A stretch of 64,000 bases of DNA from Chiloscyllium plagiosum (taxonomy: Eukaryota): assembly GCF_004010195.1 (NCBI RefSeq), contig NC_057719.1, positions 14,196,364 to 14,260,363 on the forward strand. The letters run 5' to 3'. Within the stretch, counting starts at the first letter, position 1, and the number at the start of each line of letters is the position of its first letter. A program made the position numbers and the translations under genes. The notes beneath the pieces are model-generated. The model was not told the origin of the DNA. It saw only the letters and a list, made by a program, of their open reading frames with translations, and ran no database searches. Positions 635-63,845 of the stretch are shown piece by piece.

Positions 635-721
635 CTCCATAGCTTTGTGATCCAAAGCTAAAAGAACCGATCTGAAATGGAATAAAGCCTTTTCCATCTG
701 GACAAATTTCATTGTATTCAT
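635..721 (-). CDS. LTBP2: LTBP2-like exon G, end of TB3 (DEYNEICPDGKGFIPFQIGSFSFGSQSYG)
   Basis: Acceptor aattcag|AT, donor G|gtgagt; 87 nt, phase 1-1; supplies Cys8 and the CPxGKG motif. Not in the ORF track in this frame. Confidence 0.9.
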
Positions 722-1194: not shown

Positions 1195-1411
1195 CTCTCC
1201 CTCTCTCTCCCACACGTACGCATGCGCGCACACACACAACCTTTCTCTCTCCCTCTCTCTCTCTCTCACACACATAAATCAATGGGGTAAAATTGCATTT
1301 GCAGATTTGAATTTGTAGGTACATTCTATTTTGTTCAAAAAGCACACAATCAGTCATAGAATCTCTCCCTCTCTCTCCCACACGTGCGCATGCGCGCACA
1401 CACACAACCTT

Positions 1412-1446
<35 letters not shown>

Positions 1447-1534
1447 TAAATCAATGGGGTAAAATTGCATTTGCAGATTTGAATTTGTAGGTATATTCTA
1501 TTTTGTTCAAAAAGCACACAATCAGTCATAGAAT
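1195..1534. repeat. Tandem duplication of a ~170 bp unit containing (CT)n/(CA)n tracts
   Basis: 1195-1362 and 1363-1534 are near-identical. Confidence 0.9.
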
Positions 1535-1836
1535 CCCTGCAGCGTGGAAACAGGCCCTTCAAGTCCACACTGACCCTCCAAAGAGTATTCCACTCAAACA
1601 CATCCCTCTACATTTACCCCTAACCTACACATCTCTGAACACTATGGGCAATTTAGCACGGCCAATTCATCTAATCTACACATTTTTGGATTATGGGAGG
1701 AAACCAGAGCACCCGGAGGAAACCCACACAGACACAGGCAGAATGTGTAAACTCCATACAGACAATCACCCAAGGCTAGAATCGAACCCGGGTCCCTGGT
1801 GCTGTGAGGCCACAGTGCTAACCACTCAGCCACCAT
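1527..1836 (-). mobile_element. HE1/V-SINE-like SINE
   Basis: Shared SINE body with A/B boxes. Confidence 0.85.
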
Positions 1837-11561: not shown

Positions 11562-11753
11562 CTGTGTTGATCATGGGACAAGGGTGAACTTCACAGTTAT
11601 CACCCCAACCGAGTCCAACAGTACAGCAGCATTCTTCCTTTGTGATGTTTCGGGACAGCAAATTATCGCAGAAGTTCTCATCATTCAGATTGTAGTAGCA
11701 TGCCTTCAAATCCCCCTTTGCAGGAGCTGGCATCATGGACACTGGTGTCTGTT
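11562..11753 (-). CDS. LTBP2: LTBP2-like exon F, linker plus TB3 (8-Cys) domain Cys1-7 (EQTPVSMMPAPAKGDLKACYYNLNDENFCDNLLSRNITKEECCCTVGLGWGDNCEVHPCPMINT)
   Basis: Donor G|gtaaaa; CCC triplet and GWG motif of TB domains. Acceptor acaacag|AA chosen among several in-frame AGs, so the 5' edge is less certain. Confidence 0.85.
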
Positions 11754-11949
11754 CTGTTGTAGTGGACATGAATAGATGTGAAATACAATTTATCAGGATT
11801 ACAGCAAATACTAAATACATTGCTCAAGTTACTTTGTTCTCATTGGCAGAACCCATTTTTGTAGGTCAACTACGAAAGCCATGTCAACTGGCTATGATTC
11901 AGATGGTTCATTGTTTATATCCAAATGTTCACCAAAACAAATCCTATTG

Positions 11950-12510
11950 TGGCTGTACAGGACATTGGTTAGGCCGCTTTTGGAATACTGCGTTCACCTC
12001 TGGTCTCCCTGCTGTAGGAAGGATGTTGTGAAACTTGAAAAGGTTCGAGAAAGATTTACAAGGATGTTGCCAGGGTTGACAGGTTTGAGCTGCAGGGAGA
12101 GGCTGAACAGGCTGGGGCTGTTTCCTCTGGAGCATTGGAGACTGAGTAGGGTGACCTTCTAGAGGTTTATAAAATCATGAGGGGCATGGATAGGGTGAAT
12201 AGCCAAGGTCTTTTCCTCAGGGTTGGTGAGTCCAAAACTAGAGGGCATAGATTTAAGGTGAGGGGGAAAGATTTAAAAGGGACCTAAGGTGTAGATTTTT
12301 CATGCAGAAGGTGGTGTGTGTATGGAATGAGCTGCCAGAGGAAGTGTGGAGGTTGGTACAATTGCAGCATTTAAAAGGCAGCTGGATGGATATATGAATA
12401 GGAACGACTTGGAGGGATATGGGCCGGGTGCTAGATTAATTTTGGATAACTGGTGGGCATGGTTGAATGGGGCCAAAGGATAAGTTTCCATGCTGTACAT
12501 TTCTATGACT
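11950..12510 (+). mobile_element. CR1-group LINE 3' fragment
   Basis: LYRTLVRPLLEYCVHLWSP...RLNRLGLF and 3' tail ctatgactc. Confidence 0.85.
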
Positions 12511-16862: not shown

Positions 16863-17006
16863 CCATTGTTACCCGAGGGTGGCACTGTCCTCTTGCTGGG
16901 TCAAAGTCTTCATTCTCATCCATGCACACACAGAAGAAGGATCCTTCATAATTTTCACAGAGGGCTGTTCCACAGACTCCATTCATCATCTCACATTCAT
17001 TGACAT
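16863..17006 (-). CDS. LTBP2: LTBP2-like exon E, cbEGF preceding TB3 (DVNECEMMNGVCGTALCENYEGSFFCVCMDENEDFDPARGQCHPRVTM)
   Basis: Acceptor tttatag|AT, donor G|gtaagt; 144 nt, phase 1-1. Confidence 0.92.
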
Positions 17007-38679: not shown

Positions 38680-38805
38680 CTACACATCCTTGGCCCCCTG
38701 GTGGAATCTCAAAACCTTGGTCACAATGGCAACGAAAGGATCCATCTGTATTTTCGCAATATCCATGAGTACCACAGATCGTTCCATTCATACACTCATC
38801 AATAT
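38680..38805 (-). CDS. LTBP2: LTBP2-like exon D, cbEGF ([42 protein letters not shown])
   Basis: Acceptor ttgcgcag|AT, donor G|gtaagt; 126 nt; [16 protein letters not shown] matches LTBP2 as recalled. Confidence 0.92.
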
Positions 38806-53450: not shown

Positions 53451-53582
53451 CAATGCATTCTCCGATCGCTGTACGTTGGAAACCAGGTTGGCATCTTACG
53501 ATGCACTGGTAGGACCCAACCGTATTCTCACATTTCCAGACTCCACAGACTGAGCTGCCATATAAACTGCATTCATCGATAT
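53451..53582 (-). CDS. LTBP2: LTBP2-like exon C, cbEGF (DIDECSLYGSSVCGVWKCENTVGSYQCIVRCQPGFQRTAIGECI)
   Basis: Acceptor tatttag|AT, donor G|gtgagc; 132 nt. VCGxWKCEN and the C-xxx-CQPGF spacing resemble the distinctive human LTBP2 EGF as recalled (VCGTWKCEN...CVLGCQPGF). Confidence 0.92.
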
Positions 53583-55719: not shown

Positions 55720-55842
55720 CTATACATTGTTCTGCTTCAGGTAAATGTGTGAAACCTGCATCACATCTACACATATATGATCCATCGGTATTTATGCATT
55801 GTCCCCCTGAACATTTAGTTTCGTCACTGCATTCATCCACAT
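55720..55842 (-). CDS. LTBP2: LTBP2-like exon B, cbEGF (DVDECSDETKCSGGQCINTDGSYMCRCDAGFTHLPEAEQCI)
   Basis: Acceptor cctgcag|AT, donor G|gtaaga; 123 nt, phase 1-1; cbEGF consensus. Confidence 0.9.
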
Positions 55843-63716: not shown

Positions 63717-63845
63717 CTTCACAGCCTGTTCCATCAGTAGTAGTGGTGTAGCCCTGAGCACAGAGACAGTGATAAGATCCTCCTTCATTGTTTATGCATT
63801 CTCCATTTGGACCACAGATGTCTCTGGCCAAGCATTCATTAATAT
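63717..63845 (-). CDS. LTBP2: LTBP2-like exon A, cbEGF domain (DINECLARDICGPNGECINNEGGSYHCLCAQGYTTTTDGTGCE)
   Basis: Acceptor ...ctccatag|AT and donor G|gtaaga; 129 nt, phase 1-1; six Cys with D-I-N-E-C calcium-binding motif. Confidence 0.9.

Follow-up and report, generated by a model that had tools for sequence, protein, structure and literature searches.

Can a genuine LTBP2 carry a TB3 domain of the kind that binds latent TGF-beta? The question is raised by a 64,000-nucleotide stretch of Chiloscyllium plagiosum DNA (hereafter, the window), in which an earlier note had recognized an LTBP2-like gene with an LTBP1-like TB3. According to the relevant passages of PMC3306419 and PMC9713452, a two-residue insertion between Cys6 and Cys7 defines the latent-TGF-beta-binding TB domain; the first of these sources, which cites Robertson et al. 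on the insertion, presents it as critical for the covalent link. LTBP2 is described as not binding TGF-beta, with no restriction to mammals, in the statements devoted to it in PMC13443091 and PMC6943813, and as having no known TGF-beta partner in the corresponding statement of PMC9713452. The window carries seven exons of the shark LTBP2 ortholog:

635 to 721, minus strand: exon following the TB3 exon, with the end of TB3 (including Cys8) and the following linker (from the sequence and a contig join)
11562 to 11753, minus strand: exon for the linker and Cys1 to Cys7 of TB3 of LTBP2 (from splice sites, the P0002 match and Pfam TB)
16863 to 17006, minus strand: calcium-binding EGF exon directly before TB3
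38680 to 38805, minus strand: calcium-binding EGF exon (tblastn; ends read off the sequence)
53451 to 53582, minus strand: EGF exon with a C-G-x-W-x-C pattern
55720 to 55842, minus strand: calcium-binding EGF exon (tblastn; ends read off the sequence)
63717 to 63845, minus strand: calcium-binding EGF exon (tblastn; ends read off the sequence)

The TB3 exon (192 nt, read from 11753 to 11562 on the minus strand) is preceded by AG and followed by GT; its translation, in frame from 11751, contains KACYYNLNDENFCDNLLSRNITKEECCCTVGLGWGDNCEVHPCPMINT and matches the Pfam TB family with an E-value of 4e-12. A Chiloscyllium punctatum protein named LTBP2-like (P0002) is 100% identical across this exon (P0002 residues 1388-1450) and matches six of the seven window exons by tblastn at 95-100%, the short seventh being exact. 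In all four public runs considered, which come from four studies and whose RNA nature is guessed or unrecorded (none is on record as RNA), one contig runs from 11562-11754 straight into the exon ending at 721. The join spans 10.8 kb and falls precisely at the splice sites, which shows that these contigs represent a spliced form. A sequencing or annotation artefact was rejected as the source of the TB3 observation. The C-G-x-W-x-C pattern of the 53451-53582 exon is shared by hagfish LTBP and all 10 of the LTBP2 entries examined, and is absent from the two carp LTBP1 and three LTBP4 entries checked.

The closest solved structures to the TB3 exon are the LTBP1 chains 9R3S_C (E=4.1e-24) and 1KSQ (E=6.4e-23), fibrillin TB structures matching at 8e-7 or weaker. 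A single-domain AlphaFold2 model of TB3 was weak (pLDDT 66); submitted to Foldseek, it gave a fibrillin TB module, 1APJ, as best row (E=0.024) and nothing at E<=0.001. The residues of interest map as follows:

11581 to 11592, minus strand: EVHP, the four-residue Cys6-Cys7 loop, equivalent to EIFP 1385-1388 of human LTBP1 (numbering of the structural description in PMC13443091)
11593 to 11595, minus strand: Cys6, equivalent to LTBP1 Cys1384
11605 to 11607, minus strand: Trp, equivalent to LTBP1 Trp1380
11668 to 11670, minus strand: Cys2, equivalent to LTBP1 Cys1359 by alignment to 9R3S_C and 1KSQ
11701 to 11703, minus strand: Ala at the site of LTBP1 Glu1348, the only one of five acidic sites not kept in C. 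plagiosum

The two-residue insertion is thus present (EVHP). Acidic residues lie next to Cys2 (Asp at 11682 and at 11667) and Cys6 (Asp at 11601, Glu at 11592), and the four public runs show no alternative letter in the Ala codon at 11701-11703. The reading of TB3 given in the earlier note, EVHP between Cys6 and Cys7 with acidic residues beside Cys2 and Cys6, is therefore accurate, and so is its description of the domain as LTBP1-like, the best structural matches being LTBP1 chains.

Those same PDB matches, together with the fact that databases call some close relatives LTBP1 (e.g., Callorhinchus P0010), would also fit a gene that is a mis-assigned LTBP1 duplicate, whose binding-type TB3 would then be unremarkable. 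Maximum-likelihood trees were built from TB2, five EGF domains and TB4, with TB3 excluded (IQ-TREE, LG+G4, no mixture model). In a 50-row version containing a sea-urchin and an acorn-worm row, both long branches were misplaced, the sea-urchin row (28% filled) falling inside LTBP2; the final tree omits these two rows and three gappy ones. In this seven-domain tree the window gene lies inside an LTBP2 clade (support 99/96) comprising ray-finned fish, coelacanth, salamander, sauropsid, marsupial and placental members, within which the species tree is recovered; LTBP4 is the sister group (100/99). Constraining the chondrichthyan sequences to group with LTBP1 makes the tree 53.9 log units worse (AU p=1.15e-6). 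A FastTree analysis of 132 rows puts all 121 LTBP2 entries from the matches listed on one side of a single branch (support 97).

Three other TB3 exons in the genome likewise code for a four-residue loop: EVFP on C9, EIYP on C45 and RIYQ on C100918. The tree places their genes with LTBP1, LTBP3 and LTBP4, respectively; the C9 LTBP1 pairs with basking-shark LTBP1 at 100/99. A match on C31 from the genome TB3 search was discarded as a fibrillin. The last exon of the shark gene begins at C10:14,172,153, and about 45 kb beyond it lies the sole NPC2-family match in the genome (C10:14,126,538). In pig, the gene order is NPC2-ISCA2-LTBP2-AREL1, as given in the part of PMC13517530 that bears on this locus. 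An ISCA2-family search across the shark genome gave no matches. An Fcf1-family exon about 1.1 Mb 5' of the window, which we take to be FCF1, was given little weight.

Tree and synteny refute mis-assignment: with the AU result, a separate LTBP1 on C9 and NPC2 adjoining, an LTBP1 duplicate is extremely improbable. The shark gene is a true LTBP2 ortholog, neither an LTBP1 nor a chimera. The domain phylogeny and synteny against LTBP1-4 that the earlier note had proposed both identify it as LTBP2 and neither places it as LTBP1; the LTBP2 identity asserted there is upheld by the TB3-free tree, the AU test and the adjoining NPC2.

At source, many LTBP2 entries from non-mammals bear the name LTBP1 or LTBP4-like (among them P0010, P0141, P0146, P0151, P0167, P0197, P0200 and P0221), and all group with LTBP2. 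Perhaps the LTBP1-looking TB3 lies behind this misnaming. The nearest relative of shark LTBP4, the Scyliorhinus protein P0267, bears the source name LTBP1-like, yet groups with LTBP4 at 100/99.

An LTBP1-like TB3 in a true LTBP2 could also have been acquired, the shark lineage having taken over the exon from LTBP1 through gene conversion or exon shuffling. Shark LTBP2 TB3 is indeed nearer to the genome's own LTBP1 TB3 (33 of 44 residues) than to that of LTBP3 (28) or LTBP4 (26), and a tree made from TB3 only is poorly resolved. However, the codon is the same at only 18 of the 32 residues shared with LTBP1, as compared to 12 of 27 for LTBP3 and 10 of 25 for LTBP4, and shark LTBP2 and the C9 LTBP1 stay apart in the TB3-only tree, for all its weakness. 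Moreover, the four-residue loop is found in nearly all sampled non-mammalian LTBP2 as well as in hagfish, sea-urchin and acorn-worm proteins, so that no transfer is needed. Codon usage, the TB3-only tree and the distribution of the loop largely refute a transfer, which we regard as very improbable; the likeness of this TB3 to that of LTBP1 is best read, from the sequences compared, as shared conservation.

The distribution of the loop was surveyed as follows. Since most matches to the EGF-rich region (1150-1640) were fibrillins, TB2 was used as bait; the best 120 of 433 proteins plus two further searches yielded 121 LTBP2 entries, in a sample without monotremes, frogs, caecilian LTBP2 or lungfish, and loop lengths were counted from the alignment. 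Among the matches listed, 84 of 86 non-mammalian LTBP2 entries have the four-residue loop: 12/12 chondrichthyan, 36/37 ray-finned fish, 1/1 coelacanth, 2/2 salamander, 11/11 lepidosaur, 8/8 turtle, 1/1 crocodilian and 13/14 bird. The remaining two (P0232 and P0182) are unreadable, being models that lack a cysteine at this place. All 32 therian entries among the matches listed (5/5 marsupial, 27/27 placental; 20 genera) have a two-residue loop, DL, EL or DP, which agrees with the two-residue mammalian form given in the earlier note; the four-residue loop occurs in none of these 32 marsupial or placental entries. Three further LTBP2 entries split 2:1 by loop length, the last one falling with the therians.

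On the tree of the sampled LTBP2 sequences, loop length amounts to one change: the loop was lost once, on the therian stem (monotremes being outside the sample), and was kept by the sampled ray-finned fish, coelacanth, salamanders, lizards, snakes, tuatara, turtles, alligator and birds. The four-residue loop is also present in hagfish LTBP and in LTBP-like proteins of sea urchin and acorn worm, which makes the four-residue state the ancestral one for all four vertebrate LTBPs. The survey and the tree thus sustain the idea of an LTBP1-like TB3 retained from an ancestor and later lost. Shark LTBP2 does keep the ancestral loop, as first proposed, but this is no peculiarity of sharks, given the 84 of 86 non-mammalian matches listed.

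Branch lengths estimated per domain on a fixed tree, from about 45-50 columns per domain, single out TB3. Its therian-stem branch is the longest (0.77, versus 0.07-0.43 in seven other domains), and its eutherian-stem branch measures 0.55, versus 0.00-0.20 in the others. The EGF domain after TB3 is likewise fast on the therian stem (0.43). A long therian-stem branch in TB3 is as expected once constraint is lost.

What the domain might do in the shark can be gauged from human LTBP1. In the cryo-EM structure of human LTBP1 with latent TGF-beta1, as described in PMC13443091, Cys1359 and Cys1384 are bonded to the two propeptide Cys33 residues, and LTBP1 residues 1386-1391 and growth-factor residues 328-333 come together in a sheet. 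The mutational data in the same description show that W1380A abolishes the complex, whereas F1387A lowers it to 43.85% of wild type; Phe1387 is said there to be unconserved in other LTBPs. Five acidic residues known from earlier work are also listed (E1348, D1355, D1360, D1382 and E1385), of which D1382 and E1385 matter most. Between Cys1 and Cys7, TB3 of human LTBP1 (called TB2 in some papers; 1KSQ, 9R3S) and of shark LTBP2 are identical at 29 of 41 positions and share the four-residue loop. In LTBP1 numbering, shark LTBP2 keeps K1347, D1355, C1359, D1360, W1380, D1382, C1384, E1385 and P1388. It differs in having EVHP for EIFP (Val at 1386, His at 1387), Met at 1391, Ala at Glu1348 and Phe at Leu1358. 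The equivalents of Cys1359, Cys1384 and Trp1380 are found in non-binding TB domains as well, and are therefore necessary rather than distinctive. Of the five acidic sites, C. plagiosum LTBP2 keeps four, D1382 and E1385 included, and 10 of 12 chondrichthyans among the matches listed keep all five, while therians keep only two or three.

All three TGF-beta genes of the shark genome retain the LSTC cysteine of the propeptide, and two of the three retain the mature-domain Tyr-x-Trp of the interface. Carp LTBP1 entries also carry EVHP, the shark LTBP2 version of the loop. Together with the docking residues shared with LTBP1 and the chondrichthyan acidic sites, these features suggest that shark LTBP2 probably forms a covalent large latent complex with pro-TGF-beta; covalent binding has been demonstrated for human LTBP1, which is another paralog. 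By analogy with human LTBP1, an exposed disulphide between Cys2 and Cys6 would exchange with the two equivalents of propeptide Cys33, the VHPCPM strand, together with the conserved Trp, would pack onto the mature growth factor, and the resulting complex would be anchored on fibrillin microfibrils.

Not all features of the domain speak for efficient binding. The loop might be kept while binding is weak, isoform-restricted or absent, as in LTBP4; outside mammals, LTBP2 would then serve chiefly as a microfibril protein, and the deletion in therians would have ended a function that was already minor. His occupies the site of Phe1387, the aromatic residue that stacks on the growth factor in LTBP1, and Ala that of Glu1348. 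Furthermore, sauropsid and salamander LTBP2 have Thr at Ile1386 and an altered Cys1-Cys2 loop, suggestive of stepwise weakening. The position of LTBP2 as sister to LTBP4 points the same way. LTBP4, whose main role is elastic fibre formation (as stated in the remarks on it in PMC13443091), has kept a four-residue loop, so that the loop by itself may not mean efficient binding. The loops of LTBP4 are variable (RIYQ, QLQR, QATP, QFSP), and the three named LTBP4 entries scored keep only one to three of the five acidic sites and lack the equivalents of Asp1382 and Glu1385, both of which shark LTBP2 has. Against weak binding, the shark core matches LTBP1-type TB3 to the extent given above, and ray-finned fish and coelacanth cores reach 30-35 of 41 positions. 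The acidic sites and K1347 are held in all non-mammalian groups sampled and collapse only in therians. F1387A of LTBP1, moreover, still forms the complex in the experiments described in PMC13443091. On balance, weak or absent binding seems unlikely, and covalent carriage of TGF-beta by shark LTBP2 remains our preferred reading.

Mammalian LTBP2 resembles the shark protein as its ortholog on the tree, and in the NPC2 neighbourhood, domain order and C-G-x-W-x-C EGF; it differs in the therian TB3, with its two-residue loop, degenerate Cys1-Cys2 loop and two or three of five acidic sites. In the sampled tree, the Cys1-Cys2 loop and the acidic residues eroded along with the loss of the Cys6-Cys7 loop on the therian stem, and it was probably not before the common ancestor of marsupials and placentals that LTBP2 ceased to carry TGF-beta. 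A bolder scenario, which we put forward tentatively and consider somewhat doubtful, is that TGF-beta-independent LTBP2 is a therian invention: all other jawed vertebrates, fish and birds among them, would have four TGF-beta-carrying LTBPs, and a single two-codon deletion on the mammalian stem, where the docking surface also decayed quickly, would have made a purely structural microfibril protein out of a growth-factor carrier, an event neither dated nor tested before.

Parts of this picture have precedents. The earlier note had guessed that comparative literature might already touch on the matter, and rightly so: the passage of PMC3306419 on the work of Robertson et al. indicates that the ancestral state of the insertion in LTBP-like proteins is already in print. 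The portions available of PMC3906135, PMC5548924 and PMC9322447 hold nothing on the insertion in non-mammalian LTBP2. A literature search, which did not take in the likeliest reviews, listed no paper whose title or opening abstract lines concern the motif in non-mammalian LTBP2 or a mammal-only loss. The Robertson and Rifkin reviews of LTBPs may already remark on the insertion in non-mammalian LTBP2, and the chances are better than even that they do. The finding is that of a conserved ancestral motif in an annotated gene, common to jawed vertebrates other than mammals and lost a single time, which the present tree dates to the therian stem. This amounts to a modest evolutionary correction within a well-studied family and brings no new mechanism. 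If non-mammalian LTBP2 does bind, the statement that LTBP2 does not bind TGF-beta would hold for therian mammals only, and results obtained with fish, chick or amphibian LTBP2 would mix growth-factor-carrier and structural roles, a point that matters when such models are applied to human LTBP2 disease of the eye and skeleton. In addition, the orthologs sampled constitute a natural series (EVHP, EIHP, ETHP, ETYP, then DP/DL/EL) for the determinants of disulphide exchange in TB domains.

Some additional observations were made along the way. In the LTBP2 TB3 of rays and skates (P0006, P0007, P0009 and P0026), GCCC or GGCCC stands where sharks have ECCC or EECCC; batoid LTBP2 thus lacks the Glu directly before the triple cysteine, a residue that hardly varies across the family. 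A two-copy tandem repeat (window 1195-1535; 172 bp, 95% alike) lies in the intron immediately upstream of the 721-635 exon. The intron upstream of the TB3 exon harbors a retroelement remnant on the plus strand (window approximately 11880-12400), a high-depth repeat in public runs that presumably represents the end of a CR1-type reverse transcriptase. Elsewhere in shark LTBP2, a single long exon (C10:14180298-14184349) makes up the linker after TB4; it abounds in Pro, Tyr, Gly and Gln and shows repeat-like units. The 3' exons of shark LTBP4 lie on a 41.6-kb contig (C100918:2426-18442). Finally, shark LTBP1 has two similar consecutive EGF exons after the post-TB3 EGF (C9:19287838 and 19285552), possibly a tandem exon duplication or a pair of alternative exons.
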